A DNA stretch of 64,000 bases from Candidatus Bipolaricaulota bacterium (GCA_026982655.1 JALSGO010000083.1:30-64029); one strand, 5' to 3'. Positions 32,479 through 52,613 are shown, counted from the stretch's first letter. The notes: generated by a model not told the origin, from the sequence alone. A program made the numbers and translations.

Positions 32479-32502
32479 TTCCCACCCCACCGGGGGTGGG
32501 AA
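32479..32502 (+). promoter_or_regulatory. CsoR-type operator, perfect 10-bp-arm inverted repeat TTCCCACCCC-ACCG-GGGGTGGGAA
   Basis: Read directly; same architecture (CCCACCCC-N4-GGGGTGGG) as characterised CsoR operators; 28 nt upstream of the Rieske gene start. Confidence 0.6.
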
Positions 32503-32530
32503 GAGCCCGAGGAAAGGGGAGGGATCTCTC

Positions 32531-33181
32531 GTGAAAGCGCGGAAGAAACGGCCCGAGGAGGAGCGGTGGGAACTCTCGCCGGAGGCGCGTCGACTGAGCC
32601 GGCGGAAGTTCCTGGCTCGCTTGGGCCTGGGCTCGCTGGTCCTCACGGCGGGAGGAGCGGTCAGCAGCATCGGCGCCTACATCCTGCCGAAGGTGAACTT
32701 TGAGCCCTCTCAAGCGTTTACCGCCGGGCGACCGGAGGACTACAACGTCGGGGACGTGCGGCTGATCGAATCCCAGGCCGTGTTCATCTTCCGCACGCCC
32801 TATGGCTTTCAGGCCGTCTCGGACATCTGCACCCACCTGGGGTGCGCCTATCAGCCGTACGGCCCGCCGGACGACGAGTACCCCCAGGTCCATGCCCATT
32901 GCCCCTGTCACGGGTCGGTCTTCGCGCGGGACGGGCGGGTGTTGCGGGCTCCCGCTCCTCGGCCCGTGCCCTTCTACTACATGACGATCAACCCATCGGG
33001 CTTGCTGGTGGTGGACAAGGGGGTCTACGATCCCACGGACGAGCTGAGCCGCCAGAGCGGCGAGGGGGTAGGGCACAACCTCTATCTCGACCCCGAGACG
33101 GGGCAGATGGTAGAGGGTCCGCTGCCCACCGGCGAGGACCTCCGGTTCGGAGCGATCCGAACCGAGCCCTCTCGAGGCTGA
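32531..33181 (+). CDS. Rieske [2Fe-2S] iron-sulfur protein with twin-arginine signal
   Basis: SRRKFLARLG Tat motif; CTHLGC...CPCHGS Rieske boxes; AGGGGAGGG RBS. Confidence 0.8.
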   Translation: MKARKKRPEEERWELSPEARRLSRRKFLARLGLGSLVLTAGGAVSSIGAYILPKVNFEPSQAFTAGRPEDYNVGDVRLIESQAVFIFRTPYGFQAVSDICTHLGCAYQPYGPPDDEYPQVHAHCPCHGSVFARDGRVLRAPAPRPVPFYYMTINPSGLLVVDKGVYDPTDELSRQSGEGVGHNLYLDPETGQMVEGPLPTGEDLRFGAIRTEPSRG

Positions 33182-33268
33182 AGCCCGCGGGTGCGGAACG
33201 GGCGTGGAATAGAGAGAACAAAGAAGGAAGGCAAAGAAAGAATCTCCCAACGATGGAGGTGCTGTTCG

Positions 33269-35848
33269 GTGCAGAGATCGCAGGCACAGGCGAGGACGGC
33301 GACGGAGAAACGGGAGCAAAGCTCCGCGGACACGCGTCTGGAGCTCCCCATCCGCGGGATGACGTGCGCTTCGTGCGTGGCCCGGGTCGAGCGGGCGCTC
33401 CAAGGCGCGCCCGGCGTCCGGGAGGCCCAGGTGAACTTCGCCGCGGAGCGCGCGTCCGTGGTGCTCAACCCGGAGGCGGGCTCCCCGGAAGCGCTGGTGG
33501 AGGCCGTCCGCGAGGCCGGCTATGAGGTCCCCACCGAGGCGCTCACCCTGCGGGTAAAGGGGATGACGTGCGCTTCGTGCGTGGCCCGGGTCGAGCGGGC
33601 GCTTCGCGAGGTCCCGGGAACCTTGAAGGCCGCGGTCAACTTCGCCGCGGAGACGGCCCAGATCGAGTACCTCCCCGGGGTGGCCTCGCCGCAGGACTAC
33701 CTCCAGGCCGTCCGGGACGCGGGCTACGAGGCCCAGCTCGCCGAGGAGGAGCGGGGCGAGGACGCGCTGGAGCGCCAGAGGCGGGAACACGAGGCCCATC
33801 TCAAGAAGCTCCGCCTTAAGATCGCCGTCGGTGCGATCATCAGCGTCCCCGTCTTCTTCGGCAGCTACCCCAAGCTCTTCCCCTGGGTGCCGGAGATCCT
33901 GCAGAACTTCTACGTGCTCTGGGCGCTGACCACCCCGGTGCAGTTCTGGGTCGGCTGGCAGTTCTACAAGGGGACCTGGGCGGCCTTAAAGCACAAGTCC
34001 GCGGACATGAACACGCTGATCGCCGTCGGCACCTCCGCGGCCTACCTCTACAGCGTGCTCCTCATCTTGTTCCCCCGGTTCTTCGAGGCCCAGGGGATCG
34101 CCCGGGAAGTGTACTTTGACACCTCGACGATCATCATCACCCTCATCCTGGTGGGGCGGTATCTCGAGGCCGTGGCCAAGGGACGCACCTCGGAGGCCAT
34201 CCGCAAGCTCATGGGGCTCCAAGCCAAGACGGCCCGCGTGGTCCGCGACGGGCGCGAGATCGAGATCCCCGTCGAGGAGGTCCAGGTCGGCGACATCGTG
34301 GTGGTGCGCCCCGGCGAGAAGGTGCCTGTAGACGGCGTGGTGATCGAGGGCTCCTCCGCGGTGGACGAGTCGATGGTCACGGGCGAGTCGATCCCCGTGG
34401 AGAAGGGCCCCGGCGACGAGGTGATCGGGGCGACGATCAACAAGACGGGGACCTTTACCTTCAAGGCGACCCGAGTGGGCAAGGACACCTTCCTGAGCCA
34501 GATCATCAAGCTGGTCGAGGAGGCCCAGGGCTCGAAGGCCCCCATCCAGCGCCTGGTCGACAAGGTGACGGGCGTCTTCGTCCCGGCGGTGATGCTCATC
34601 GCCTTGGGGACGTTCGTCGTGTGGTACTTCTTCGGGCCGCACCCCGCTTTGACCTATGCGCTGCTCAACGCCGTGTCGGTGCTGATCATTGCCTGCCCCT
34701 GCGCGCTGGGGCTGGCCACTCCGACGTCCATCATGGTGGGGATGGGCAAGGGGGCCGAGCACGGCATCTTGATTCGCAGCAGCGAGGCGCTCGAGCGGGC
34801 GGGCAAGATACAGACCATCGTCTTCGACAAGACGGGGACGCTCACCCGCGGAGAGCCCCAACTGACGGACATCCTCCCCGCGGAGGGCTTCACGGAGGCC
34901 GAGGTGCTCCGACTGGCGGCGGCCGCGGAGCGGCGGAGCGAGCACCCCCTGGGGGAGGCGATCGTCCGAGGCGCCGAGGAGCGGGGGTTGGACTTGGCCG
35001 AGCCGGAGGGCTTCCAGGCGATCCCGGGCCACGGCATCGAGGCCACGGTCGAGGGGCACCGGGTGCTGTTGGGCAACCGGCGGCTCATGGAACGGGAGGG
35101 CGTCGACGTGCGCGCCTTGCAGGCCCAACTGGAGCGACTGGCCGACGAGGGCAAGACCCCCATGATCGTGGCCGTCGACGGCCGGGCAGCCGGGGTGCTG
35201 GCCGTGGCCGACACCCTCAAGGAGGGCTCCCGAGAGGCGATCGAGGCGCTGCACCGGTTGGGCATCGAGGTGGCGATGATCACGGGCGACAACCGGCGCA
35301 CCGCCGAGGCGATCGCCCGCCAGGTGGGGATCGATCGGGTGCTGGCCGAGGTGCTCCCCCAGGACAAGGCCAAGGAGGTCAAGCGCCTCCAGCAGGAGGG
35401 CCGGGTGGTGGCCATGGTGGGCGACGGGATCAACGACGCGCCCGCGCTGGCCCAGGCCGACGTGGGGATCGCCCTGGGGACGGGGACGGACATCGCCATC
35501 GAGACGGCCGAGGTCATCCTGATCTCGGGCGACGTGCGCGGGGTGGTGACCGCCATCGCCCTCTCCCGGGCCACGATCCGCAACATCAAGCAGAACCTCT
35601 TCTGGGCCTTCTTCTACAACACGGCGCTCATCCCTGTGGCCGCCGGGGTGCTCTACCCGTTCACGGGCCTGTTGCTCAACCCCATCCTCGCCGCGGCGGC
35701 GATGGCCACCAGCTCCGTCTCCGTGGTGACGAACGCCCTGAGGCTGCGGCGGTTCCGCCCCCCGGTCGTCCAGGGACCGCCCGGCCCCTCGCGCGGGGAG
35801 CCGCGCCCCGACTCCGTCCCGGTCCCGGCGGCCGGAGCGGGCCGCTAG
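33269..35848 (+). CDS. copA: Copper-translocating P1B-type ATPase with two N-terminal HMA domains
   Basis: Two [12 protein letters not shown] (MxCxxC) domains, TGES, CPC in TM6, [19 protein letters not shown]; GTG start chosen (ORF opens at 33191). Confidence 0.9.
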
Positions 35849-35923
35849 AGGGCAGAGCGGACGACCGTCGATCGCCCTTGCCCTCGCAACCACAACGAAG
35901 AAGAGAAGAGAGGAGAGGAGAGG

Positions 35924-36238
35924 ATGACCGAAGAACTACTGGTGTTGTTACAGCAGGGGAGCCTGGCGGCCCACCCGGAGGCGAAGCGCCACGCCCAGCG
36001 GCTCGTCCGCACCGTCATCGGCCACACCCAGGGCATCGAGCGGATGATCGAGGAAGAGCGATACTGCATCGACATCTTAAAGCAGATCGCCGCGGTGCAG
36101 GGGCTGCTGACCAAGCTGGCCCACACCGTAAGCGAAGCCCACATGAAACACTGCGTGCGACTGGCCATCGAGGAGGGCCACGGCGAGGAGGCCGTTGAAG
36201 AACTGATGGAGACGCTGAAATACCTGCGGAGCGTATAG
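35924..36238 (+). CDS. csoR: CsoR family Cu(I)-sensing transcriptional repressor
   Basis: ~104 aa; Cys (RYC) and H-x3-C (AHMKHC) with C-to-H spacing of 25 as in M. tuberculosis CsoR C36/H61/C65; no N-terminal His cluster (not RcnR). Confidence 0.8.
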   Translation: MTEELLVLLQQGSLAAHPEAKRHAQRLVRTVIGHTQGIERMIEEERYCIDILKQIAAVQGLLTKLAHTVSEAHMKHCVRLAIEEGHGEEAVEELMETLKYLRSV

Positions 36239-36245
36239 TTCCCCC

Positions 36246-38663
36246 ATGGGGTGGCTGGACGGCCTGCTGCGCCATCGTGGGCTCGTGCTGGGGGCGGCTT
36301 TGCTGCTCACCGTTCCGGCGCTCCTGTCTCTCAGTCGATTGGAGTCCCAGGACACCTACGATGCTTGGTTCCCCCCGGACGACCCGGCGTATCGCTTCTA
36401 TCGGGAGTTCCAGCGGCGGTTTGAGAACGACATGTTCATCGTGGTGGCCTATCGAGACGAGACCCTCTTCACCCGGGAGGGGCTGGCGTTCCTCGCGGAG
36501 CTCACCGCCCGTCTTGCGGAGCTCCCCTACGTGCGGGAGGTGACCAGCCTCACGAACGTCGAGCACGTCCGGGGGGAAGAGCAGGCGCTCATCGTCGAAC
36601 CCCTCGTCCCCGATCCGGAGCGCCTCGATCCCGACGTCGTCCGGCAACGGGCCCTCTCGCGCCCCCTCTACCGCGGGCTGCTGATCTCCGAGGACGGGAC
36701 GACGACCGCGGTCGTCGCCGAACTCGACCGGATCGCCTCCATGGACGAGGAGGCCGCTCTGGTGGGGGCCCTCAAGGACCTCCTGCGCACGCTGGAGGTC
36801 CGAACGGGCAAGTCCTTCTACATCGGGGGCTATCCCGTCCTCGACGTCGAGATCATGCAGGCTTCCGAGCGGGATATCCGGACGTTCATCCCCTTGACCG
36901 TCGGGGCCATCTTCCTCGTATTGTGGGGGGTCTTCCGCCGACCGTCGCTGGCCGCCCTGGCGTTCGTGTCCGTCTCGCTGGCGCTGGCTTGGACCTTCGG
37001 GCTGTACGCCGGCCTGGGTCTTAAGTACAGCATGATGCTGAGCATCCTGCCCACGATCATCCTCGCCATCGGGATTGCGGATGCGGTACACATCTTGGTC
37101 CACTACTACGAGGAGCTCGCCCGGGGGCGGCCGCAGCGGGAGGCCCTCCGTCAGACCCTACGAAAGATGCTCCGCCCCTGTCTGTTCACGACGCTGACGA
37201 CCGGAGCCGGGTTCATCTCGTTCTTGAGCAGCGATATCCCCGTGGTGCGGCTGACGGGGCTCTTTGCCGCGGTGGGCATCGGGCTTGCGTTCGTGCTCAC
37301 GGTGCTCGTGCTGCCCGCAGCCGTCTCGTTTTTCCGCCCGCCGCACGGGACGGCCCGGCGACGGTCTCAGGGCACGTTCGCTCGGGCCTTGGAGGGGCTG
37401 ACCCGAACGACCCTGGCCCACCCGCGCGCCGTGCTCCTGGGGGCCGGGATCGTGCTCGTCTTCGGCCTGTACGGGATCTCCCGCTTGGAAGCCGAGACGC
37501 TGGGCCTGGAGTGGCTGCGCGACGACCACCCCCTCCAGCAGAGCTATCGCTTCATCGAGGAGAACCTCACCGGGCTGTACAACCTCGAGCTCATCGTCGA
37601 GGGCGAACGGGACGCGCTCCGCTCCCCCGAGATGCTCCGCCGGATCGAGGAACTCAGTGCGTTTGCGCTCCAACAGCCGGGCGTGCGCAAGGCGATCTCC
37701 GTGGTCGACTACGTCAAAGAGATCCACCGGGCGCTCCGCGGGGGAGATCCCCGGTACTACACGATCCCGGACACGGCCCGCGACGTCGCGCAGGCGTTGT
37801 TGCTCTACGAGTTCTCCGGGGGACGCGAGCTGCGCGAGATCGTAAGCGGCGACTACAGCGCCGGACGACTCACCCTGCTGCTGGATGCCCTCTCCAGCCG
37901 GGAGTACACCGAGCTCAACCGACGCATCCTCGAGCGCGCCGAGACGTTGGACTTCCCTCGGCCCGTGCAGGCAACCGGTGCAGTGGTCCTGGTCGAGGCG
38001 ATGCTCAAGAAGCTCACCCTCAGCCAGGTCCGGAGCTTGGGGTTGGCTTTGGCCCTGATCACCTTGCTTATGATCGCCCTGTTGCGCTCCTGGAAGTTGG
38101 GGCTGCTCAGCTTGATCCCCAACGGGCTGCCGATCCTGCTGATGTTTGCGACCATGGGCCTGCTCTCCATCCCCCTGGACGCGGCGACGTCCACGGTCGC
38201 GGGGATGGCTTTAGGGATCGCCGTGGACGACACGATCCACTTCTTGACCCGCTTCCGACGCGAACTGAACGTGACGGGCGACTATCGCCGGGCGCTCACG
38301 CAGACGGCCCGGACGGTCGGCCAGGCGATCGTGTTCACGTCCGTGATCCTGCTGGCCGGCTTCAGCGTGCTGTTGCTGGGCAGCTTCAAGGGAACGGTGT
38401 ATATGGGGTTGCTCGTCGGGCTCACGATGCTCTTCGCGCTCGTAGGGGATTTGGTGCTCCTACCCGCGCTGCTCTGGGTCCTCAAGCCCCTCCCTGTGTC
38501 CGCAGCTGCTTCGACCCCGGCTCCGGCTCCGATGGCGGACGATGGCCGATCAGCTTCCGACCAGAGGAGGTTGAGGGAGGTCATGGACGACGCCCCCCGG
38601 GTGCAGGGTACGCTTATGCGTGGCCGGGACGAGGAAACAGGAGCCCGCGAAGCCGGCAGGTGA
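36246..38663 (+). CDS. RND superfamily transporter, MMPL/HpnN-like (12 TM, two periplasmic loops)
   Basis: 805 aa with duplicated 6-TM bundles and MMPL-type motifs (GIGIADAVHIL..., GIAVDDTIHFLTRF). Confidence 0.8.
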   Translation: MGWLDGLLRHRGLVLGAALLLTVPALLSLSRLESQDTYDAWFPPDDPAYRFYREFQRRFENDMFIVVAYRDETLFTREGLAFLAELTARLAELPYVREVTSLTNVEHVRGEEQALIVEPLVPDPERLDPDVVRQRALSRPLYRGLLISEDGTTTAVVAELDRIASMDEEAALVGALKDLLRTLEVRTGKSFYIGGYPVLDVEIMQASERDIRTFIPLTVGAIFLVLWGVFRRPSLAALAFVSVSLALAWTFGLYAGLGLKYSMMLSILPTIILAIGIADAVHILVHYYEELARGRPQREALRQTLRKMLRPCLFTTLTTGAGFISFLSSDIPVVRLTGLFAAVGIGLAFVLTVLVLPAAVSFFRPPHGTARRRSQGTFARALEGLTRTTLAHPRAVLLGAGIVLVFGLYGISRLEAETLGLEWLRDDHPLQQSYRFIEENLTGLYNLELIVEGERDALRSPEMLRRIEELSAFALQQPGVRKAISVVDYVKEIHRALRGGDPRYYTIPDTARDVAQALLLYEFSGGRELREIVSGDYSAGRLTLLLDALSSREYTELNRRILERAETLDFPRPVQATGAVVLVEAMLKKLTLSQVRSLGLALALITLLMIALLRSWKLGLLSLIPNGLPILLMFATMGLLSIPLDAATSTVAGMALGIAVDDTIHFLTRFRRELNVTGDYRRALTQTARTVGQAIVFTSVILLAGFSVLLLGSFKGTVYMGLLVGLTMLFALVGDLVLLPALLWVLKPLPVSAAASTPAPAPMADDGRSASDQRRLREVMDDAPRVQGTLMRGRDEETGAREAGR

Positions 38664-38722
38664 GCGGCCTGCTCTGCCGGACGAAGCCATTCGGAAGCGA
38701 GAGGAAGGGAGGAAAGGAACTC

Positions 38723-39373
38723 ATGAACCCGCAGGAACGATGGAACGATGCTCTGACGCCGGAGAAGGAACCGACCGAGGGAGCTCTCTCGACGCCGCCC
38801 CCGGACGGCGCGTCCGAGGGGACCGGAGAGGGGCGGTCCCCTAAGGGGCGAACCGTGGGGATCGCCCTGATCCTCGCCGTGGTCGTGGGGATCGGCATCG
38901 GGTACTCGCTGTATTCCTTGCGGGCCGAGAGGGTGTCCGGGCTGGCGTCCACGGGGAGGGAGGTAGACCGGGGCCTCGGCGGCGGCATGCCGGCGATCGT
39001 GGTGGCCCCGCTGCTTAGGGATCTCGGGGAGGTGAGCGTCCAAGGGGGGACGGTGACCACCTTCTTCACCGTGCGCAATCCCGGGGACGGGGTGCTGGTC
39101 ATCACCGACATGGAGACTTCCTGTATGTGCACGGAGGTCGCTTTGATCGTGGACGGCGTGGAAGGCCCTCGACTCGGGATGCGCGGCCACGGTCCGCGGC
39201 CCGAGTGGTCGGCCCGGCTGAACCCGGGCGAGGAGGCGACCCTTAAGGTCTACTACGACCCCACGGTACACGAGGAGCTACGCGGACCGGTCACCCGCGT
39301 GGTGCGGGTTCACACGAACGTCCCCACCCGTCCCTACGTGGACATCTTGATCGATCTGGTGCAAACGGACTGA
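38723..39373 (+). CDS. DUF1573 domain protein (SCxCT motif variant SCMCT), membrane-anchored
   Basis: TM anchor, then FTVRNPGDGVLVITDMETSCMCT matching the DUF1573 signature N-G-PL-I-SCGCT; GGAGGAAAGGAA RBS. Confidence 0.65.
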   Translation: MNPQERWNDALTPEKEPTEGALSTPPPDGASEGTGEGRSPKGRTVGIALILAVVVGIGIGYSLYSLRAERVSGLASTGREVDRGLGGGMPAIVVAPLLRDLGEVSVQGGTVTTFFTVRNPGDGVLVITDMETSCMCTEVALIVDGVEGPRLGMRGHGPRPEWSARLNPGEEATLKVYYDPTVHEELRGPVTRVVRVHTNVPTRPYVDILIDLVQTD

Positions 39374-39424
39374 CTCCCGTGGGCAGACCGAAGGCTACAC
39401 GACAATCGGGGAGGGAATGCCAAG

Positions 39425-40000
39425 GTGATGAACGGGGAATCGAGGGACAAGGACCAAGGTCAGAATACGGAGATGCACGCGATCCGCCGCCGGGCGGCCT
39501 TCTTGAGCCGAGGCGGAGTGAGCCTGCCCCTCCTGATCATCGGGGTCCTCCTGGCCCTGGGGACGACTGCGGGCCTGGGGTATTTGCGTCTGGCGGGCCC
39601 ACCGGCGGCAGGCCCTCCGCGCATCGAGGTCACGCCGGAGCTCATCGAGTTCGGAGAGATCTCCCCCACCGAGAAGGCGGTCGTGGAGTACCGTGTGCGA
39701 AACGCCGGGGGAAGCCCGTTGGAGATCACCCGCGTGAGCACCTCGTGTGGGTGCACCACCGCCGAGGTCGGCAAGACGACGCTCCTCCCCGGCGAGACGA
39801 CTCCGTTGCGCGTCACCTTCGACCCCCAAGCGATGCGGGCCGAAGGGCTCAACGAGGAGGACATCTACCGGATCATCTTCCTAAGGAGCAACGACCCCGA
39901 GCGGCCGGAGGTTACCGTCGAGCTTCGCGGTCGCGTCCTGCCGTCGGACTCGGACTCGAACTCGAACTCGGAGCCGGAGTCTGCCGTCGAGGGGAGGTAA
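39425..40000 (+). CDS. DUF1573 domain protein (canonical SCGCT motif), membrane-anchored, (DS/NS)n-rich C-terminus
   Basis: YRVRNAGGSPLEITRVSTSCGCTT signature; paralog of the preceding gene. Confidence 0.7.
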   Translation: MMNGESRDKDQGQNTEMHAIRRRAAFLSRGGVSLPLLIIGVLLALGTTAGLGYLRLAGPPAAGPPRIEVTPELIEFGEISPTEKAVVEYRVRNAGGSPLEITRVSTSCGCTTAEVGKTTLLPGETTPLRVTFDPQAMRAEGLNEEDIYRIIFLRSNDPERPEVTVELRGRVLPSDSDSNSNSEPESAVEGR

Positions 40001-40098
40001 CCGAAGCGCTCGGTTGGGGCCGGGCACGGGGGACGGCCCCCTAATCCCACCCCAGGAGGGAAGGGAAAGGGGAAGCTTCCTGAAGGAAGAAGAAGCCC

Positions 40099-43142: not shown

Positions 43143-43190
43143 GCCCTACGTGCGATCCACCTCCACAGAGAACGAAAGGATCGAAAGGGC

Positions 43191-44582: not shown

Positions 44583-45304
44583 TCCGCTACGCGCTCTTCG
44601 ACTTGGACGACACGCTCTATCCCCCGGCGGCGGGGCTCATGGAGGCCCTCAGCCGCCGCTTTACGCAGTGCATCGCCGAGGAGCTGGGCATCTCCCTCGA
44701 ACAAGCCGAGGCCCTGCGGCGCGAGTACGGCAAGCGCTACGGCTCGACCACGCGGGGGCTCGCCCTGCATCACCACGTGGACATCGGGGGATTTTTGGCC
44801 AAGGTCCACGACCTGCCCATCGAGGAGTATCTGCAGCCCGACCCCGAGCTGGGGTGTTTGTTGGACTGCATCGACGCGCAGAGGTGCATCTTCACCAACG
44901 CGCCGGAGGCCTACGCCCGGCGGGTGTTAGACGTCCTGGGCGTCGCGGATCGCTTCTGTCGGGTCTTCGCGGTCGAGTTCTCGGGTTATAGGGGCAAGCC
45001 CGACCCCCTCGTCTACGAGCGGGTGGTCGCCGAGCTGGGCGCTTCCGACCCGGAGATCGTGATGCTCGACGACGTGCGGGCCAACCTCCTCCCCGCCGCG
45101 CAGAGGGGCTGGACGACCGTCTGGGTCAACGGGCGGGGGAAGCCCGCCGACCCTCAAGACCTCGACGGGATCTCCTATGCGGTGGGCGACCTCTGGGAGG
45201 TGGCCCGCGTCTTCCGCGAGATCGGGCTCCTCGACGAGGCCCACCACGAGGAGTGGAACCGCTGCCTCCTCCGGTGCCCGCTGGGCCGGAGACGGGCTGG
45301 GTGA
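44579..45304 (+). CDS. HAD superfamily hydrolase (pyrimidine 5'-nucleotidase/SDT1-like)
   Basis: FDLDDTLY motif I, FTNAP motif II, later K and DD motifs. Confidence 0.7.
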   Translation: MIRYALFDLDDTLYPPAAGLMEALSRRFTQCIAEELGISLEQAEALRREYGKRYGSTTRGLALHHHVDIGGFLAKVHDLPIEEYLQPDPELGCLLDCIDAQRCIFTNAPEAYARRVLDVLGVADRFCRVFAVEFSGYRGKPDPLVYERVVAELGASDPEIVMLDDVRANLLPAAQRGWTTVWVNGRGKPADPQDLDGISYAVGDLWEVARVFREIGLLDEAHHEEWNRCLLRCPLGRRRAG

Positions 45305-45347
45305 CCTTGCTGGACGTCTTCCGGGGGGAACATGACGCAGATCATTG

Positions 45348-45371
45348 ATCCCACCCCACGGGGGGTGGGAT
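45348..45371 (+). promoter_or_regulatory. CsoR-type operator, perfect inverted repeat ATCCCACCCC-ACGG-GGGGTGGGAT lying between -35 TTGATC and -10 GATAAT
   Basis: Read directly; 18-bp spacer promoter fully occupied by the palindrome; downstream gene is cytochrome b. Confidence 0.65.
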
Positions 45372-45405
45372 AATGGCGGGCGAAAGGCGGGCGAAGGAGG
45401 GACGC

Positions 45406-46491
45406 ATGGAAGCACAGAAGACGGTCATGCAAAGCCGACGGCGACGCCTCTGGGAGGCGCTCGACGAGCGCCTGGGGTTGAGCGCCCTGAGGTACCCCGT
45501 CCCCGCCCACGCCAACACGCTGGGATATATGTTAGGCGGGATCACCCTCTTTGGCTTCCTCATCTTGATCGCCACAGGCATTTATCTTACGCAGTTCTAC
45601 AACCCCGACCCCAGCCAAGCCCACGACAGCGTCGTCTACCTCGTCGAGCAGACGACGTTCGGGGACCTCGTCCGCAGCATCCACTACTGGACGGCCAACT
45701 TGGTGGTCGTCACCGTTCTCCTCCACCTTCTACGGATCTTCTTTGCGGGGGCGTACAAGCGGCCCCGGGAGGCCAACTGGCTGGTCGGCTTGGCGCTTTT
45801 GGCGATCACCATCGGCTTCGTCTTCACCGGCACGGTCCTCAAGTGGGACCAAGAGGCCTACGAGGCGATGCTCCACAACATGGCCTTCTCGGAGCTTCTG
45901 GGCGGGATCGGGAGCTGGTTCTCCCCAAGTTTTACCCTGAGCGTGCCGATGCTCACCCGCCTCTACGCCGTCCACATCGCGGTGCTCCCGGCGCTCTTCC
46001 TCATCTTGATCGCGATTCATCTGATGCTGGTCAAGTACCACGGGATCTCGCCGCTGCCCACCCTGAACGCTCGGGCGGGCACCTGGGGCAAGGAAGGGAC
46101 GGGCCGCTTCTCCGCGCACCTGCGGCGCATGGTGGGCTACGGGCTATGGCTGCTGGCCTTAGCGGGGGTGCTGGCGCTCCTCTGGCCCGCGCCGCTGGGC
46201 TATCCCCCGGTTCCGGGCGCCGAGGTGACGAAGCCCCCGTGGTTGTTCCTGTGGCTCTACGCCTTCGAGAACTGGGTGGGGACCGCCGGGCTGCTCTGGC
46301 CACCGCTTGTGCTCTTCCTGCTGCTGGCGTTGGTGCCCTTCCTCGACCGCAGCCCCTATCTGGCACCCCGAAAGCGACCCGTAACCGTCACGCTCGGCGT
46401 GGTGCTGTTGCTCTTTTTGGTCGGGTTGAGCGTGTACGTGGCCCTCACCCCGCCGGTGAGCCACATCCAAGGGCAAGGGATGGGAGGTTGA
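45406..46491 (+). CDS. Cytochrome b (bc/b6f-complex type; N- and C-terminal domains fused)
   Basis: Helix B/D bis-His pairs (HYWTANLVVVTVLLH; LHNMAF...VHIAVLP), 8 TM helices; GAAGGAGG RBS before ATG 45406 (ORF opens at 45373 inside the promoter). Confidence 0.75.
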   Translation: MEAQKTVMQSRRRRLWEALDERLGLSALRYPVPAHANTLGYMLGGITLFGFLILIATGIYLTQFYNPDPSQAHDSVVYLVEQTTFGDLVRSIHYWTANLVVVTVLLHLLRIFFAGAYKRPREANWLVGLALLAITIGFVFTGTVLKWDQEAYEAMLHNMAFSELLGGIGSWFSPSFTLSVPMLTRLYAVHIAVLPALFLILIAIHLMLVKYHGISPLPTLNARAGTWGKEGTGRFSAHLRRMVGYGLWLLALAGVLALLWPAPLGYPPVPGAEVTKPPWLFLWLYAFENWVGTAGLLWPPLVLFLLLALVPFLDRSPYLAPRKRPVTVTLGVVLLLFLVGLSVYVALTPPVSHIQGQGMGG

Positions 46492-46495
46492 GACC

Positions 46496-47077
46496 ATGCG
46501 ACCACAGAGCAGTTGGGTTCACGTCGGTTGGATCACAGCGTTGCTGACGGTGGCGGTGGGGATCGGGCTTGCGGTGGGGCTTCCGGGACGGGCCCACGAG
46601 GGCGCGGAGGTGAGCGCCTATCCTACCACCGTGGCCCCGGGGGAGACGCTCTTCGTGGAGGGCGCGGACATCAACCCTAACGGCCCGATCGCCCTCTTCT
46701 TGGAGGGCGTAAAGGGCAAGTTCCGCCTGGGTCAGGTCCGGGGGGACGAGGACGGCGGGTTCAAGACGAGCGTGGCCCTCCCGCCGGATCTCCCGCCGGG
46801 GACCTATTTGTTGGTGGCCGTCGGGGCCAACGGGGAGAAGGCCACCTTCTCGGTGACGGTGGCCGCCGCGGTAAGCTCCCTCACCCAAGAGCCCAGGGAG
46901 CCCACGGACGCGCTCATGGAGCTGGACCGGTCAAGGTCCTCCGAGGAGTGGGCGTTCCTCGCCGTCGTGATCGGGCTGAGCCTGCTCCTGGGGGCGTGGC
47001 TGGCCCGCCCGGAACGGATGGTTGCACCTGCCTCTCCTTCTGCCTCCGCCGCCGAGCCCGACGGGAGCGGGCCTTGA
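46496..47077 (+). CDS. Hypothetical periplasmic Ig-like protein with predicted mature N-terminal His and C-terminal TM anchor (possible CopC-like Cu-binding protein)
   Basis: Signal peptide ...GLPGRA|HEGAEV; beta-rich core; C-terminal helix WAFLAVVIGLSLLLGAWLA. Confidence 0.4.
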   Translation: MRPQSSWVHVGWITALLTVAVGIGLAVGLPGRAHEGAEVSAYPTTVAPGETLFVEGADINPNGPIALFLEGVKGKFRLGQVRGDEDGGFKTSVALPPDLPPGTYLLVAVGANGEKATFSVTVAAAVSSLTQEPREPTDALMELDRSRSSEEWAFLAVVIGLSLLLGAWLARPERMVAPASPSASAAEPDGSGP

Positions 47078-47103
47078 GCGCAAAGGGGGCCGAGAGGAAG
47101 GAG

Positions 47104-48309
47104 ATGAGCCGACGGGGGTACGAAGGAGTTTCGGTCGTGGGGGCCGGACCGGCGGGGCTTGTGGCGGCCCTCACGCTGGCCCGCGCAGGCGTCCCCGTCA
47201 CCGTCTACGAGAAGGGGCCGACGGTGGGCACCCGCTTCCACGGCGACTTTCAAGGCTTAGAGAACTGGTCCCGCGAGCTCGACGTCTTGGAGGATCTCCG
47301 GACGATGGGGCTTGCGATCAACTTCGCCGTGCAACCGCGCGACTCAGCGGACTTCTACGACGCCTGGGACCGGAAGTACGACATCAGGACCCGAGAGCCC
47401 CTCTTCTATCTGGTGCGCCGCGGGGGTGGGGAGGGGAGCCTCGACCGCGGGCTCTACGCCCAGGCCCGGGAGGCCGGGGTGCGGTTCCGTTTCCACACCA
47501 AGCTCGATCGGGTGGAGGGCCCGGCGATCGTGGCCACCGGCCCGCGCTACGCCGACGGCATCTGCGTGGGCTACCTCTTCGAGACGGACCTAGAAGACCT
47601 TACGGCCTGCATCCTCTCCCAGCGCCTGGCCCCCCGCGGCTACAGCTACCTCCTGGTGGCCGACGGTCGGGCGACGCTGGTGAGCTGCCACTTCGCCGAC
47701 CTCCCCCGCTGGCGGGATCATCTGGAGGCCACCGTCGAGGCCTTCCGAAAGCTTTACCGCTTTGAGATGCGGAACCCCCGCTTCTTCTCCGGCTACGGGA
47801 ACCTCTTCGCCCGGGGGCGCTTCCGCGACGGCCAAAAACTCTACGTGGGCGAGGCCGCCGGGCTCCAGGACGGCCTGTGGGGCTTCGGGATGCGCTTTGC
47901 CCTGCGCTCGGGATATCTGGCGGCCCAGAGCCTGCTCTCCGGCCAAGACTACGACGAGCTGGTCCGAAGGGAGCTTCTGCCGCACCACCGGGCGGGGCTG
48001 GTCAACCGCTTTTTCTGGAACCTCTTGAGCGATCGCATGTTGGCGTTCTTCCTGCGGCGGGCGGCGCGCTGGACCGACCTTCGGGGGCGGCTGCGCGAGC
48101 TCGCCGGGCCCCGTCCCTGGAAGGATCGGCTCTATCCCTTCATCCGGGGAGCCTGCGGCTGGCGGGCCCGCTACCGCGACGAGCGCTGCCTCCGGGAGGG
48201 GTGTCCCTGCATCGGGTGCGCGTGTCGGAGTCCTTCGCGTACGATCTCGAGCCCCTGCGTCTCTTGGGGAGCGGCTCGGTTCCGACTCGACATGACGCAA
48301 GTCATTTGA
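47104..48309 (+). CDS. FAD-dependent oxidoreductase (geranylgeranyl reductase-like) with Cys-rich C-terminal tail
   Basis: VSVVGAGPAGLVAALTLARAG dinucleotide-binding motif; tail ERCLREGCPCIGCACRS. Confidence 0.65.
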   Translation: MSRRGYEGVSVVGAGPAGLVAALTLARAGVPVTVYEKGPTVGTRFHGDFQGLENWSRELDVLEDLRTMGLAINFAVQPRDSADFYDAWDRKYDIRTREPLFYLVRRGGGEGSLDRGLYAQAREAGVRFRFHTKLDRVEGPAIVATGPRYADGICVGYLFETDLEDLTACILSQRLAPRGYSYLLVADGRATLVSCHFADLPRWRDHLEATVEAFRKLYRFEMRNPRFFSGYGNLFARGRFRDGQKLYVGEAAGLQDGLWGFGMRFALRSGYLAAQSLLSGQDYDELVRRELLPHHRAGLVNRFFWNLLSDRMLAFFLRRAARWTDLRGRLRELAGPRPWKDRLYPFIRGACGWRARYRDERCLREGCPCIGCACRSPSRTISSPCVSWGAARFRLDMTQVI

Positions 48310-48331
48310 CCCACCCCCTCTGGGGTGGAAT
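48309..48331 (+). promoter_or_regulatory. CsoR-type operator (imperfect): ACCCACCCC-CTCT-GGGGTGGAAT between -35 TTGACC and -10 AATAAT (17-bp spacing)
   Basis: Read directly; paralogous to the 45331-45375 module (CATGACGCA..TCATT..CCCACCCC..GGGGTGG.ATAAT). Confidence 0.55.
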
Positions 48332-48342
48332 AATAGAGTGAA

Positions 48343-48669
48343 ATGTCTGCAGAAGCGCGGCGCGGGATCGACAGCAGGTTCCGGGATCTCCTGTCCCTGT
48401 TGCTCATCGGGGTGTTGATCCTGCCGATGGCCGGCCCCTCCGGCCCCTTCACGGAGTCAGGGGCGTGTTCGGGGAACCCGCTTGAGGCGGGATGCGCTGC
48501 GATTCTGCATGTCGCCCGAGGCACGGCCGGTCATTGCCTGCCTTGTGGTGCCGTTGTCCTCCTGAGCTCTCCTCTGCCCTTTGCCTGGGCACTCGTAGGG
48601 GATTGGACTTCCGCCGGACTTGGCAGCCCGTTGGATCCGTCCTTTGTGCCCTGGCGTCCCCCTGCCTGA
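48343..48669 (+). CDS. Small Cys/His-rich membrane protein, probably leaderless (ATG 8 nt after the -10)
   Basis: TM helix LLSLLLIGVLILPMAG then GACSGN...GCAA...HCLPCG cysteine cluster; no SD. Confidence 0.4.
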   Translation: MSAEARRGIDSRFRDLLSLLLIGVLILPMAGPSGPFTESGACSGNPLEAGCAAILHVARGTAGHCLPCGAVVLLSSPLPFAWALVGDWTSAGLGSPLDPSFVPWRPPA

Positions 48670-48784
48670 CCTCCGCTTCGTTCTTTTGCCCGTGCCCGCG
48701 GTCCTTTGAACGGGCCTTCGTCGGCCTAAGGGATCGTACGTATCTCAACTCCATCTGCAATCTGCACAAGGAGCAGGAGGTCGA

Positions 48785-49270
48785 GTGCCAATGCCTAAGA
48801 AGACGAACAAGGATCGGAAGGTCAAGCAGCAGCGTCTACTCCGGCAGGGGGCGGCCGGGGGCTGGCGGCCCTGGGCCTTTGGGGCCGTCACCCTCGGGGT
48901 GCTAACAGCCGCGTTTGGGCTGCTCTTGCCGAAGTTCTTCGCCGACGGTCCCGCAGCGGACGGGGAGGCCAACGTCATCCTGGTCGAAGCGGACATGGCC
49001 GGGCTCTATCCCAAGGAGATCCGGGTCAAGGCCGGGGAGCCCGTGACCATCCGCCTGCGCAGCTTGGACAACCGGTTCCACCTGGACGGGGGAGGCAAGC
49101 ACCAGTTCGCCATCGACGAGCTGGGGGTCAACATCATCGCTCCGCCGCTCGGCACGGCCGAGGCCACCTTCATCCCTACGGAACCGGGTGAATACGAGTT
49201 CTACTGCGACATCTGCTGCGGCGGGCGGGCCAACCCGACCATGGTAGGGAGGCTGATCGTCGAGCTATGA
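48785..49270 (+). CDS. Cupredoxin-like domain protein (EYEFYCDICCGG motif), membrane-anchored
   Basis: Paralog of 42768-43142 (shared PGEYEF-xC motif and beta-sandwich core); GGAGCAGGAGG RBS. Confidence 0.6.
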   Translation: MPMPKKTNKDRKVKQQRLLRQGAAGGWRPWAFGAVTLGVLTAAFGLLLPKFFADGPAADGEANVILVEADMAGLYPKEIRVKAGEPVTIRLRSLDNRFHLDGGGKHQFAIDELGVNIIAPPLGTAEATFIPTEPGEYEFYCDICCGGRANPTMVGRLIVEL

Positions 49271-50109
49271 GCGCTCTGACCCAGATCTCCGCGCGCAAGG
49301 TGGTGCTGGCCTCGGCGATCGCCCTGGGGGTGATCGCCGCCGCGGTCTTCTTGGGGCTGCGGCACCCCTCCGCCCAGGCCGTCCCGATGAGCCCGCTCCT
49401 CCCGGCGGTGACGCTGGGGACCATCGTGGTGGCCGGGATCGTCGACGGGATCAACCCCTGTGCCTTCACGGTGCTCCTACTGTTCGTTACTGCCCTGCTC
49501 GCGAGCCTGCAAACCCGCAGCGACGTCGGGATCGCCGAGAACGTGGGGGCCACGCGCGCCCGGATCGTGGGGCTCGGCTCCATCTACATCGCAGCCATCT
49601 TCCTCACCTACCTGGCGCTGGGGGCGGGGCTCTTGGTGACGGCAGATCTCTTCGTGCGGGAGCACCTGCCCGCCCGGATCGGGGCGCTGCTCGCCATCTT
49701 CCTCGGGCTGTGGATGCTCAAGGACTACTTCCTGCCCGGGTGGGGCTGGCGGCTGGGGGCCCCCAAGGTCGTGGGGGAGTGGGCCCGGCGCGCGGCCCGG
49801 AAGATGACCGTCCCGGCGCTGGCGCTCGGGGGCTTTCTCATCGGGCTCTGCACCGTGCCCTGCAGCGGGGCGGTCTACCTGGCGGTGCTGGCGCTCCTCT
49901 CGACCCAGCCGACCGCGACGGCCTTCGGGTACCTGGTGCTCTACAACCTGATGTTCATCCTCCCGTTGGTCGGGGTGCTGGCCGTGGCCGCGTCGCGCCC
50001 GGCGCTGAACCGCTTGGCCCGCTGGAACCTCCACCACCGGGAGGGGGTCCGGCTGGCCTTGGGGTCGGGTGTCGTGCTCATGGGGCTGTTCATCCTGTAC
50101 ACCGTCTAG
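49267..50109 (+). CDS. Cytochrome c biogenesis CcdA/DsbD-family thiol-disulfide transmembrane protein
   Basis: Two TM-embedded Cys (DGINPCAF; CTVPCSGAV) in 6-8 TM helices. Confidence 0.7.
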   Translation: MSALTQISARKVVLASAIALGVIAAAVFLGLRHPSAQAVPMSPLLPAVTLGTIVVAGIVDGINPCAFTVLLLFVTALLASLQTRSDVGIAENVGATRARIVGLGSIYIAAIFLTYLALGAGLLVTADLFVREHLPARIGALLAIFLGLWMLKDYFLPGWGWRLGAPKVVGEWARRAARKMTVPALALGGFLIGLCTVPCSGAVYLAVLALLSTQPTATAFGYLVLYNLMFILPLVGVLAVAASRPALNRLARWNLHHREGVRLALGSGVVLMGLFILYTV

Positions 50110-50159
50110 CTGGGAAACGGAGAACGGATCGAGAACCCAGGAGAAAGGAGGAAGCGGCG

Positions 50160-50480
50160 GTGAACAACCATCATGCGGGAGGCGGCAAGCCCTGCCACGT
50201 CGAGCGGCTGGAGAAAGAGGTGGACATGGAGGCGCTGCGCTCCACCCGGGTCAGCATCCTGGCGGTGACGGGGATGGGGTGTCCCAACTGTGCCCTGCGG
50301 GTGCACAACGCGCTCCTCGCCCTCCCCGGCGTCCATCGGGTGGACGTGGAGCTGGAGGCCGAGCGGGCGATCGTCTACTGGGACCCGACCGCCCTGCAGC
50401 CGGAGAGGCTGATCGAGGCGGTCTCCCAGGCTGCGGCGGGGACCCCTCACGACTACCGGGCGTACTTCGTGAAGCCGTAG
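50160..50480 (+). CDS. Heavy-metal-associated (HMA) domain protein, CopZ-like (GMGCPNC)
   Basis: MxCxxC motif in beta-alpha-beta-beta-alpha-beta context; AGGAGAAAGGAGG RBS before GTG 50160. Confidence 0.65.
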   Translation: MNNHHAGGGKPCHVERLEKEVDMEALRSTRVSILAVTGMGCPNCALRVHNALLALPGVHRVDVELEAERAIVYWDPTALQPERLIEAVSQAAAGTPHDYRAYFVKP

Positions 50481-50642
50481 CGGAGCCACAGACGCAGAGC
50501 GGGGCTGCCCGGGGCCCGAGTCACCGTCGTCGCATCGGCTTCCACCTCCGCCCCGGGCAGCTCCCCGCCCTGCCCGCCGACGGCAGGGAGCTCCCACACA
50601 CGGGGAGAGAAGGAGAAAGGGAAGACACAAGGAGGGATTTCC

Positions 50643-51173
50643 ATGGACCTTAGGCTCATCGCCGTTGCGATCGTCTCCTTGGCGCTGGGGTTCCTCTTGG
50701 CCTCCGGCCTGCGCCCGGAGGTCGGGGTGGGGCCTTCGGAGGCGGAGCGGATCTTGGAGCGGCTGCGGCGCGAGATCATCCCGGAGGAGGGCAGCCCCAC
50801 GGGCTACGGGATCGCCTTCAGCGAGGCGGGCTACCAGACCCTGGTGGCCAAGAACCGCACACTCAGCGTCCCGCCCGAGCGGGCGGACGACTTCGAGGGC
50901 CTGGACATGAGCCTGCCCTGCTGTCCCTTCCAGAGCCCGAGCGTCGACGAGGCGAAGAACTGCCCGTGCGAGCACCATCAGGCGCTCTACGGGCTGGCCA
51001 AGTGGCTCCTCCAAGAAGACTATCCCGCAGACCGGGTCCAGGAGGAGGTGGCGCGCTGGAGCCGCTACCTCTTCCCCAAGGAGGCGCTGCGGGCGGAGAT
51101 GGAGCGGCGGGCGAAGCTCGATCCCGCCGTCGAAGCCGCCCTGGAGGAGCTCAAGGCCAAGGGGAAGTGCTAG
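50643..51173 (+). CDS. Membrane-anchored Cys-rich hypothetical protein (LPCCPF...NCPCEHH motifs)
   Basis: N-terminal TM helix; two CC/CxC clusters plus HH; AAGGAGGGA RBS. Confidence 0.5.
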   Translation: MDLRLIAVAIVSLALGFLLASGLRPEVGVGPSEAERILERLRREIIPEEGSPTGYGIAFSEAGYQTLVAKNRTLSVPPERADDFEGLDMSLPCCPFQSPSVDEAKNCPCEHHQALYGLAKWLLQEDYPADRVQEEVARWSRYLFPKEALRAEMERRAKLDPAVEAALEELKAKGKC

Positions 51174-51227
51174 GCCGATTGGAACAGGGACGACCCGACG
51201 AGATCGAGGACGAGGAGGCGAGCGACG

Positions 51228-52541
51228 ATGATGGCATCCACAGCCGAACCGGCGGAAACGGAACCCCGACGGGGCGGGGGCCTGGGGAAGAGCCTTCGGG
51301 AGCGCTGGGCGCTCTGGACCCTGGGGCTGTTCGCCCTGCTGATCGTAGGGCTCTTCTTCTTCTACCGCCCGCCCATGGAGGAGAGCATCACGGGGGACAC
51401 CTTCCACCCCATCCGCGGGCTGATCGGCTTCCCCCACGGCCCGGGGGCCGCCGCGGAACCCTACGACGAGGAGGCCCTCGACCGCTTCGTGGAGGAGACG
51501 ATCGCGGAGACCTACGCCAAGGCGCGCATCGATCAGATCAAGCTCCTCCTCATGGGGCTCCTCATCGGCTTGATCCCGCTGGGCTATTACCGCGGTCGGT
51601 CGGACCGCCTAAAGCGCCTGGGACAGCGGGTCAACAAGATCTGGGACCCCTACACCTTCGGCACCGTCTCGGGGCTCCTTTTGGTGGGGGTGATCATCCC
51701 TACGGGGACGGTCCTCGGCCTCTTCTACAGCGCCGACGCGGAGAAGCTCTACGAGAGCATGGCGGGCATCGTGGGGAACCCCATCCTGAGTTTCCTGCGC
51801 AACCTCCACCTCTGGGCCTCGGAGGCGTTCTTGCTCTTCCTGTTCCTGCACACGGCCCGGATCGTCTCCACGCGGGCCTACTTTGCGGGACGCAAGCTCG
51901 TCTGGGTTCTGGGTGTCGTGCTGCTTGTGATCAGCTGGGCGACCTTCCTGATCGGCACCTTCATCCGGGGGGACCAGGAAGCGTTTGAGGCCTGGGTCCA
52001 CATGATGGCCCTCATCCGCTTCATCCCCCTCGTCGGGGACCCGATCGCCGACTTCTTCTCCGGCCCCTTCGCCGTCATGCGGCTGTACGTCTTCCACATC
52101 GTGATCACCACCATCGCCTTGCTGCTGATTCTGGCACCCCACGTGCTGATGCAGAAGGTGTACGTCCACGTGCAGCGGCGCTGGAGGGCGGCCCTTCGCT
52201 ACACCCTGGGGCTTACGGCCCTGATCGCGGTCCTCAGCCTGCTGGTGCCCGCCCCCTTCCTGGCGGAGCCCTACCACGACCTGGAGATCACCAAGCCACC
52301 GTGGCCCTATTACTTCCTGTACGCCTGGGAGAACATCGGCGGCGCGGTGAGCATGATCTGGTCGCCGCTGCTCATCCTGGTGCCGCTGCTTCTGCTGCCG
52401 TACGCGCTGGAGCAGCTGCCACTCGCCCGCCGGACCGCCCAACGGGTGGGCGACTGGGTCTTCTACGGCGGGGTCCTGATCACCTTAGGGCTGAGCTACT
52501 GGGTGGCCGCCTCGGGAATTGTGGCCCACGTCTTCGAATGA
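51228..52541 (+). CDS. Cytochrome b (bc-complex type), second paralog
   Basis: Bis-His helix motifs (NLHLWASEAFLLFLFLH; WVHMMALIRF...FHIVITT), 8-10 TM helices. Confidence 0.7.
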   Translation: MMASTAEPAETEPRRGGGLGKSLRERWALWTLGLFALLIVGLFFFYRPPMEESITGDTFHPIRGLIGFPHGPGAAAEPYDEEALDRFVEETIAETYAKARIDQIKLLLMGLLIGLIPLGYYRGRSDRLKRLGQRVNKIWDPYTFGTVSGLLLVGVIIPTGTVLGLFYSADAEKLYESMAGIVGNPILSFLRNLHLWASEAFLLFLFLHTARIVSTRAYFAGRKLVWVLGVVLLVISWATFLIGTFIRGDQEAFEAWVHMMALIRFIPLVGDPIADFFSGPFAVMRLYVFHIVITTIALLLILAPHVLMQKVYVHVQRRWRAALRYTLGLTALIAVLSLLVPAPFLAEPYHDLEITKPPWPYYFLYAWENIGGAVSMIWSPLLILVPLLLLPYALEQLPLARRTAQRVGDWVFYGGVLITLGLSYWVAASGIVAHVFE

Positions 52542-52590
52542 GGAGGGCCGGACTTGACAACCCTCCCCGGATGGGGTACAGTGAGACCAT

Positions 52591-52613
52591 ATCCCACCCC
52601 AGGTGGGGTGGAT
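52591..52613 (+). promoter_or_regulatory. CsoR-type operator (imperfect): ATCCCACCCC-AGGT-GGGGTGGAT immediately before GATAAG and the MMPL gene start
   Basis: Read directly; TTGACA at 52554-52559 upstream. Confidence 0.5.

Follow-up and report, generated by a model that had tools for sequence, protein, structure and literature searches.

CsoR is the textbook switch of a single operon for a copper pump. The question raised here is whether one CsoR can govern a much wider set of genes, components of membrane electron transfer among them. The DNA analysed was a stretch of 64,000 nucleotides from Candidatus Bipolaricaulota bacterium (GCA_026982655.1, JALSGO010000083.1:30-64029), called the window below and numbered from its first letter. 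An earlier note on this DNA had proposed that a recurrent inverted repeat places Rieske, cytochrome b and MMPL genes in a copper regulon. Five such palindromes (boxes 1 to 5) were found. They are probably the operators of a single CsoR, encoded at 35924 and released by copper across an island of roughly 24 kb, and a copper-stress regulon is the preferred reading of this island. Judging from the sequence, copper probably switches on pumps together with a spare Rieske protein, a special family of cytochrome b and membrane transporters; control of the non-pump genes is proposed because the boxes sit on promoters of the island and recur at the same genes in relatives. What is new is the set of targets, the clade and the pair of conserved promoter geometries; regulator, operator and the logic of repression were known before.

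Candidate operators and their repressor

The core pattern CCCACCCC-N4-GGGGTGGG was searched in the window and mismatches were counted for each match. Exact matches were found at 32481 and 45350, matches with one mismatch at 48310 and 52593, and a match with two mismatches at 40046. At no more than one mismatch, four matches were observed against 0.00 expected from 100 dinucleotide-preserving shuffles. A looser core (ACCCC-N4-GGGGT) was not enriched in the window beyond the sites of the boxes, and the signal is therefore the full 8+4+8 unit. The inverted repeats with 10-bp arms and a 4-bp spacer that the earlier note had read as perfect at 32479 and 45348 were recovered as such (Table 1). Of its two imperfect sites, that at 52591 was kept and that placed at 48309 was moved to 48308, where the box begins; 40044, described there as a degenerate half-site, scores as a full site.

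A weight matrix was then built from 14 boxes located on other contigs only, so that no window box was used in training. This matrix retrieved exactly the five window boxes, at 24-34 bits; the next-best window position scored 6.6 bits and the maximum over 20 shuffles was 14.2 bits. The gap between window boxes and noise was 18 bits. All five boxes are intergenic and none lies within a gene, though intergenic DNA makes up only 4.6% of positions 30652-56407. Box 2 is probably a weakened but working operator, because it reaches 24.9 bits and perfect boxes occupy the orthologous positions in relatives. A short C4-N4-G4 palindrome, TCCCCGGATGGGGT, was also observed at 52559-52582, inside the -35/-10 spacer of promoter P5 and 27 nt 5' of box 5. 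It scores 6.6 bits and could be a weak auxiliary site or a chance occurrence.

The window core is contained without change in the published M. tuberculosis cso operator, GTAGCCCACCCCCAGTGGGGTGGGATAC (PMC10601412, PMC10141476), and in the T. thermophilus CsoR site, CCCCACCCCACCTGGGGTGGGG (PMC10318464). The proposed match of arms and spacing to characterised CsoR operators is borne out by this identity.

The 104-residue product of 35924-36238 carries the family domain PF02583 (E=6.1e-24, over the cut-off). Its closest solved structures are 3AAI (T. thermophilus, E=3e-18), 4M1P (G. thermodenitrificans) and 2HH7 (M. tuberculosis), and these copper CsoRs outranked the nickel sensor InrS and the formaldehyde sensor FrmR. 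In the alignment with 2HH7, the YC...H-x3-C residues of the window protein fall on Cys36/His61/Cys65 of M. tuberculosis, the Cu(I) ligand fingerprint. The note's call of a bona fide csoR within the operon headed by 32479 thus holds. No second CsoR paralog was detected in the window by tblastn. The order box 1-Rieske-CopA1-CsoR is common to the window and one relative (L164), which links the repressor with a Cu(I) P1B-type ATPase. Since csoR lies inside the box 1 operon, the system would be autoregulated.

Promoter architecture

Promoters were sought by a sigma-70 consensus scan over 32000-51999 and 52000-64000. Three sigma-70-like promoters were found in the first interval and one in the second, and all four coincide with boxes 1, 3, 4 and 5; four of the five GC-rich pseudo-palindromes thus sit on promoters, as expected of CsoR operators, which have C/G tracts of at least 4 and overlap the promoter. 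Two geometries were distinguished. At type A promoters (P1, P5) the box begins 8-10 nt past the -10 element, so that the transcription start is covered: box 1 begins 10 nt past the -10 element and spans about +1 to +24. At type B promoters (P3, P4) the box fills the -35/-10 spacer, with the right arm reaching into the -10 element. A TTGACA-17-TATAGT-like layout 5' of boxes was also found in L005, L163, L164, L167 and L168. The phasing of box and -10 element is constant across genomes and both geometries are conserved in relatives. All cytochrome b promoters are of type B and can be aligned as a single block.

This arrangement bears on whether the palindromes are CsoR operators at all. They could instead be sites of another regulator or dispersed GC-rich hairpin repeats, such as REP-like elements, terminators or stabilisers of mRNA 5' ends. 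The boxes do fold as stable 10-bp hairpins, and in type A promoters these would form the 5' end of the mRNA. Yet no T-run was found 3' of any of the five boxes, and the fold z-scores and energies of the hairpins are ordinary for this base composition. An Rfam scan of the whole window at gathering thresholds returned no known RNA element. Type B boxes are untranscribed, and a function common to all boxes therefore acts on DNA and not on RNA. The boxes keep a fixed phase to the -10 element, two footprinted CsoR operators have the identical core, and csoR itself lies in the first operon. The earlier note had named, as the case that would speak against it, a repeat occurring equally inside genes; all 19 of the 19 sites found in nine contigs are intergenic, and no match of at least 14 bits occurred in 1.8 Mb of unrelated loci. 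A dispersed repeat or terminator was rejected on these grounds, and it is very improbable that the palindromes are anything but CsoR operators.

If the boxes are operators, copper-free CsoR would occupy the five promoters and block RNA polymerase, occluding the spacer and the -10 element at type B promoters and covering the start site at type A promoters. Binding of Cu(I) at the Cys-His-Cys site would free CsoR from DNA, as in characterised CsoRs.

A second conserved palindrome, ATGAC-N4-GTCAT (TGA-N6-TCA core, resembling sites of the CRP/FNR family), adjoins the -35 element of every type B promoter. The window has one copy per promoter (45332-45345 and 48292-48305), while relatives have two copies 22 bp apart, as counted by eye (L166:9165-9210, L167:9629-9675, L168:9092-9138). 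At no more than one mismatch, the window has four matches where 0.61 would be expected, and it contains no CRP/FNR gene.

Promoter P4 (48260-48340) resembles P3 (45300-45380) over about 45 bp, with palindrome, box and -10 element all alignable. In L167, the genes from cytochrome b1 to cytochrome b2 continue unbroken, with no counterpart of P4. The gene of the FAD oxidoreductase lies directly 5' of P4 in the window but after csoR in L164. Taken together, these observations suggest that a new regulated unit arose here by local rearrangement.

Conservation in relatives

Contigs or loci carrying homologs at 43-86% protein identity are designated by L-numbers. The named relatives of the window Rieske and cytochrome b are Candidatus Fraserbacteria and Bipolaricaulota/Bipolaricaulia. 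The box is conserved 5' of the orthologous Rieske, CopA-YHS, cytochrome b and MMPL genes, which upholds the comparative side of the proposal. Perfect boxes precede the Rieske gene at L163:9968, L164:9878 and L005:2021. Boxes were found 5' of CopA-YHS at L166:3814 and L167:4324 (perfect) and at L003:615 and L005:9770, and 5' of (DOMON-)cytochrome b at L166:9213 and L167:9677 (both perfect) and at L168:9140. MMPL genes are preceded by a box at L167:19457 and by a weaker one at L164:19772. Further boxes stand 5' of a pair of CcdA-like and TlpA-like genes (L005:356) and of a CopA-Rieske2-YHS operon (L168:13116). A metagenome scan with the Rieske alignment gave, among the matches listed, only distant relatives (at most 43% identity), which were used as negative-control sequence.

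Several observations were made beside these. The 96-residue open reading frame (ORF) that follows box L168:13116 was considered as a second CsoR and rejected, because tblastn and a domain search gave no CsoR. In the same Bipolaricaulia metagenome-assembled genome (MAG), a perfect box (L168:2969-3612) lies 5' of a truncated sigma-70-type factor that comprises regions 3 and 4 only; further along the operon are genes for an ICMT/PEMT methyltransferase, beta-CASP, HAD and MMPL. If CsoR controlled this sigma factor, the regulon would be widened indirectly. Divergence along the window is uneven: CopA2, CupA and beta-CASP (40099-44582) share 88-95% identity with the orthologs of L163, L166 and L167, against only 70-75% for Rieske and CopA1 (32531-35848) with their counterparts in L163/L164. 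On these identities, the CopA2 cassette could have been transferred recently or could be under stronger constraint.

Rieske and cytochrome b proteins

The cluster-binding boxes CTHLGC and CPCHGS of the Rieske protein are invariant in 41 homologs and the protein has an SRRKFL twin-arginine signal, as expected of a bc-type Rieske. Cytochromes b1 and b2 both have His pairs spaced by 14 (helix B) and 15 (helix D) residues, that is, two bis-His sites. KPPWLF and KPPWPY (PPW, Qo-like) occupy the PEWY position in b1 and b2; we take them to be Qo variants of the PEWY type.

Relatives also have Rieske genes of another kind, in clusters that combine Rieske and cytochrome b with Rnf-type genes. This unusual combination consists of Rieske, a cytochrome b of about 255 residues, RnfC, RnfD, (RnfG/E/A) and Fer2 (L165:2754-8540, L171:10001-17622, L172:10001-16175, L173:4179-10015). 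No CsoR box was found in these four, apparently housekeeping, loci or in L004, and the box therefore marks the copper-linked paralogs specifically. The description of the Rieske/cytochrome b set as an alternative one, made in the earlier note, is on this comparison justified at the level of the clade, with boxes at the orthologs in relatives and none at the housekeeping loci. The window Rieske is 52-66% identical to the Rieske of the box-free clusters. Cytochrome b1, of which roughly 1,800 homologs were found, is about 34% identical to the housekeeping cytochrome b, against 57-60% to proteins of Chloroflexota.

Three Chloroflexota contigs, representing two gene contexts, were compared. At L170:2426-11097 and L174:4893-13701, cytochrome b, an ORF of about 70 residues and a protein of 172-175 residues lie beside a P-type ATPase. 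HMA and YHS genes accompany them in L170. In L174 the further neighbours are two cupredoxins, a 287-residue CcdA-like protein, LGT and a TRASH protein, and a two-component system was noticed nearby. These copper-related neighbours occur without a box, so the association of cytochrome b with copper is older and broader than the regulatory link.

The same comparisons bear on an alternative that keeps CsoR control and differs in purpose. A housekeeping complex with an exposed 2Fe-2S cluster would be damaged by exported copper, and the copper-tolerant or replacement Rieske and cytochrome b would stand in for it. Metal-regulated replacement by paralogs is a well-known strategy. The window Rieske, as a close paralog of the box-free Rieske with the same length and motifs, would suit such a role, and so would cytochrome b1, which retains all four heme His and the Qo-like motif. 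The divergence of cytochrome b1 speaks otherwise: its family is a separate one, with a link to copper even in Chloroflexota, and this points to a dedicated function and not to a spare part. The coexistence of both Rieske types, moreover, is seen at the level of the clade and not within one genome. Substitution of isoforms is a serious alternative, possible but clearly the less probable one beside a copper-stress regulon.

Copper-handling proteins and gene map

The map of the island was based on third-position GC frame analysis, Pfam, NCBIfam and translations (Table 1). All genes from 30.6 to 61.5 kb are on the + strand, and OppB and OppC precede box 1. Most target calls of the earlier note were kept: Rieske at 32531, CopA2 at 40099, cytochrome b at 45406, the second cytochrome b at 51228 and MMPL at 52619. 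Two were revised, the gene after csoR being an MMPL transporter and the cupredoxin after CopA2 a protein of the CupA type; the first CopA is encoded at 33191-35848, between Rieske and csoR.

Table 1. Predicted operators, promoters and genes of the island, in window coordinates
Feature	Position	Strand	Description and evidence
CsoR box 1	32479-32502	.	TTCCCACCCC-ACCG-GGGGTGGGAA; 10-bp arms perfect; 30.5 bits
CsoR box 2	40044-40067	.	ATCCCACCCC-AGGA-GGGAAGGGAA; left arm perfect, two core mismatches in right arm; 24.9 bits; 5' of CopA2
CsoR box 3	45348-45371	.	ATCCCACCCC-ACGG-GGGGTGGGAT; 10-bp arms perfect; 34.4 bits; occupies -35/-10 spacer
CsoR box 4	48308-48331	.	GACCCACCCC-CTCT-GGGGTGGAAT; one core mismatch; 24.1 bits; within -35/-10 spacer
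CsoR box 5	52591-52614	.	ATCCCACCCC-AGGT-GGGGTGGATA; one core mismatch; 30.6 bits; starts 8 nt past -10
Promoter P1, type A	32440-32468	+	TTGACA-17-TATCGT; 10/12 consensus matches
Promoter P3, type B	45345-45374	+	TTGATC-18-GATAAT; promoter scan
Promoter P4, type B	48292-48334	+	Palindrome ATGACGCAAGTCAT and TTGACC-17-AATAAT
Promoter P5, type A	52554-52582	+	TTGACA-17-TACAGT; promoter scan
Upstream palindrome	45332-45345	.	ATGACGCAGATCAT; TGA-N6-TCA core; abuts P3 -35 element
Rieske, bc-type, Tat-anchored	32531-33181	+	Pfam PF00355; SRRKFL; CTHLGC...CPCHGS
CopA1, P1B-type Cu ATPase	33191-35848	+	Two HMA domains; Pfam; 75% identity to L164 ortholog
CsoR repressor	35924-36238	+	PF02583; C-H-C ligands
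MMPL/RND-type transporter 1	36246-38663	+	Pfam PF03176; csoR operon
Two DUF1573 Ig-like proteins	38723-39373, 39425-40000	+	Pfam, frame analysis; orthologs in L166, L167
CopA2	40099-42771	+	YHS, two HMA and P-type ATPase domains; Pfam; 83-93% identity to orthologs
CupA-type membrane-anchored Cu(I) chaperone	42768-43142	+	phmmer; translationally coupled to CopA2
Beta-CASP metallo-beta-lactamase	43191-44582	+	Pfam; after CupA in relatives too (synteny L166, L167, L168)
HAD hydrolase	44579-45304	+	Pfam, translation; pairs with beta-CASP in L166, L167, L168
Cytochrome b1	45406-46491	+	361 residues; Pfam; called start supported by homolog P0121
Membrane-anchored Ig-like protein	46496-47077	+	193 residues, conserved; invariant His after predicted signal cleavage site
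FAD-dependent oxidoreductase	47074-48309	+	Pfam, NCBIfam; start uncertain, ORF opens at 46948; L164 ortholog after csoR
Small membrane protein	48343-48669	+	CLPCGA motif; 42% identity over C-terminal 59 residues to L167 ORF of 110 residues
Cupredoxin 2, CuA-like variant	48791-49270	+	H...CxxCC...M; Pfam PF13473; aligned to NosZ CuA domain
CcdA/DsbD-like thiol-disulfide membrane transporter	49267-50109	+	280 residues; NPC ... TVPCSG motifs
HMA/CopZ-like protein	50226-50480	+	GMGCPNC; HMA ortholog of 84 residues in L167
Membrane-anchored Cys-rich protein	50643-51173	+	CCPF...CPCEHH; 70% identity to L167 ortholog
Cytochrome b2	51228-52541	+	437 residues, N-terminal extension; Pfam; 81% identity to L167 ortholog
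MMPL transporter 2	52619 (likely start ATG 52628)-55573	+	Pfam, start codons
LolA-like protein	55625-56407	+	Pfam

Five transcription units would result from the five promoters. The first would comprise Rieske, CopA1, CsoR, MMPL1 and the two DUF1573 proteins and be autoregulated, and the second CopA2, CupA, beta-CASP and HAD. The third would comprise cytochrome b1, the Ig-like protein and the FAD oxidoreductase. The fourth would join the small Cys protein, the CuA-like cupredoxin, the CcdA-like transporter, the HMA protein, the Cys-rich protein and cytochrome b2, and the fifth MMPL2 and the LolA-like protein.

The CupA-type protein at 42768 matches S. pneumoniae CupA (2MRY/4F2E) with a phmmer E-value of 3.6e-22. 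It has an N-terminal membrane helix, a cupredoxin fold and a Cys...Cys-x-Met-x-Met copper site: Cys74 and Cys111-x-Met113-x-Met115 (own residue count), of which both Cys and both Met align with 2MRY/4F2E. By its sequence it is a Cu(I) chaperone of the CupA type, that is, ordinary efflux equipment. Aligned to the CuA domain of nitrous-oxide reductase, cupredoxin 2 has another residue in place of one His and carries an additional Cys. The NPC and TVPCSG motifs of the CcdA-like protein are kept in the window protein and in L174; the Pfam matches stay below the cut-off (window protein, SfLAP 5.6e-5; L005 protein, DsbD_TM 1.9e-5). The small Cys-containing ORF at 48343 gave no tblastn match. It was not dismissed as spurious, because pairwise comparison with L167 revealed a conserved C-terminal half; the note's reading of it as a gene was thereby retained.

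The two cupredoxins are relevant to a second alternative under the same CsoR control, a switch that responds to copper sufficiency: the cell would produce copper-dependent electron carriers, and the complex that partners them, only while copper is in ample supply, as in the plastocyanin/cytochrome c6 pair. Copper-controlled switching of carriers is known in cyanobacteria (PetR/PetP, cited in PMC10141476). A CuA-like cupredoxin does lie within the cytochrome b2 operon, and a gene for heme-copper oxidase subunit I was found near the MMPL box of L164. The operator also controls two efflux ATPases, however, and this implies that induction would require copper excess, beyond mere sufficiency. Of the two cupredoxins, the one after CopA2 is a CupA chaperone and no electron carrier, and cupredoxin 2 lacks one CuA His and has the extra Cys. 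A sufficiency switch is therefore unlikely, and less likely than replacement of isoforms.

Other features of the map are recorded here as observations. The family of the protein encoded at 46496-47077 (170-190 residues) has a signal peptide with an invariant His directly behind the predicted cleavage site (xA|HEGAEV), then an Ig-like domain, and it ends in a membrane helix. Copper binders with an N-terminal His have the same topology. The 193-residue window member was considered as a histidine-brace protein like YcnI/CopC; this was left unsupported by its AlphaFold model (pLDDT 76), which matched only generic Ig/macroglobulin beta-sandwich folds. Beta-CASP and HAD genes are always paired (window 43191-45304, L166:7025-9140, L167:7516-9662, L168:4348-6476). 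The pair, in which beta-CASP has RNase J-like domains, follows CopA2-CupA in the window, L166 and L167. At 52619-61486, two MMPL/LolA-like pairs flank a cyclopropane-fatty-acid synthase (56461-57798), and only the first pair has a CsoR box. The boxed MMPL/LolA-like pair hints at copper-responsive transport of envelope lipids.

Relation to known systems

The cso operon of M. tuberculosis (csoR-Rv0968-ctpV) is close to the system proposed here in its CCCACCCC-N4-GGGGTGGG core (PMC10601412), in its C-H-C site and in having the repressor within its own operon together with a Cu ATPase; its site overlaps the -35/-10 region (PMC10318464), as type B boxes do in the window. It differs in being a single operon with csoR as its first gene, whereas csoR is third in the window and five promoters are involved, with Rieske, two cytochromes b, a CcdA-like protein, CupA and MMPL. 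The CsoR of T. thermophilus (TTHA1719, copZ-csoR-copA) is the best match of solved structure (3AAI) and has the same core in CCCCACCCCACCTGGGGTGGGG (PMC10318464). It also serves a single operon and has C-H-H ligands (PMC10141476) instead of C-H-C.

A repressor of the CsoR family acting at several dispersed promoters is known from the RicR regulon of M. tuberculosis, which has five loci (PMC10141476). Its targets are MymT, LpqS, a permease, SocAB and a multicopper oxidase, and no respiratory-type proteins are among them (PMC10141476). In the copY-cupA-copA operon of S. pneumoniae, a membrane-anchored CupA with cupredoxin fold is likewise paired with CopA; the regulator there is CopY and not CsoR, and the window cupA lies 3' of copA and is translationally coupled to it. 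The envelope copper-tolerance systems of the Scs and CcdA/TlpA type are comparable in having a transporter, here a putative one, of CcdA/DsbD-like kind (in L005 with a TlpA-like thioredoxin) behind a promoter predicted to be copper-responsive; we take the window proteins to resemble Scs proteins. Those systems have another regulator, and the window transporter sits in a cluster of cytochrome b and cupredoxin genes.

The literature search found no paper that links CsoR to Rieske or cytochrome b genes, in agreement with the earlier note, which had called the link undescribed. Searches for copper stress with Rieske/bc and for Fraserbacteria with copper gave no account of such targets either. The CsoR-family regulons known so far are single cop operons or the five-locus RicR regulon (PMC10141476).

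Discussion

In the copper-stress regulon that is preferred here, Cu(I) efflux through two CopA and CupA would be coupled with an extracytoplasmic module for redox and thiol maintenance and with envelope transporters. In this module the spare Rieske paralog and the dedicated family of cytochrome b would act with the CcdA-like reductant exporter and with copper-binding proteins rich in Cys and Met, so as to maintain quinol-linked electron flow and copper-binding thiols at the site where exported copper accumulates. This reading is favoured because one operator drives two efflux pumps and a module rich in Cys/Met copper binders with a reductant exporter, and because a second phylum also shows this family of cytochrome b linked to copper. 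Binding of CsoR at the boxes, induction by copper and the physiology of the redox module are what we infer from this analysis.

Several points weigh against it. The right arm of box 2 is degenerate, and the consensus scan gave no sigma-70 match, and thus no clear promoter, for this box. Box 4 has no counterpart at its position in L167, the closest syntenic relative, and this site is therefore specific to the lineage of the window. The second palindrome at type B promoters suggests another regulator acting there with CsoR. Rieske and cytochrome b1 are encoded 13 kb apart, in separate operons, so a physical complex of the two is assumed; they lie in adjacent operons in L168, and directly adjacent genes are found only for the housekeeping paralogs. 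No CsoR box was present in the Chloroflexota homolog clusters examined, and the regulatory link is therefore specific to the clade. The physiological role is conjecture. The scope, finally, is 64 kb of an uncultured MAG, in sequence only, and the full regulon, other regulators and housekeeping Rieske and cytochrome b lie beyond this view.

A further, rather doubtful interpretation goes beyond stress protection. The Rieske paralog, the copper-linked cytochrome b, the CcdA-like transporter and the Cys/Met-rich proteins of cupredoxin fold might together be an unrecognised extracytoplasmic copper redox machine linked to the quinone pool. It may, for example, be a Cu(I):quinone oxidoreductase or a system that recycles cuprous thiolates, induced by CsoR together with efflux in this clade. 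Multicopper oxidases such as CueO have a comparable role elsewhere.

One type of operator at five promoters, with a footprint across uncultured genomes, is no accident of a single contig. The predicted regulon takes in a Rieske protein, two cytochromes b, a CcdA-like reductant exporter and RND transporters of the lipid type. The analysis also flags a family of cytochrome b, of unassigned role, that travels with copper genes in two phyla. The five natural operators in two geometries offer a test set for the block of RNA polymerase by CsoR octamers. If induction by copper is true, proteins of membrane electron transfer would join the bacterial copper response.

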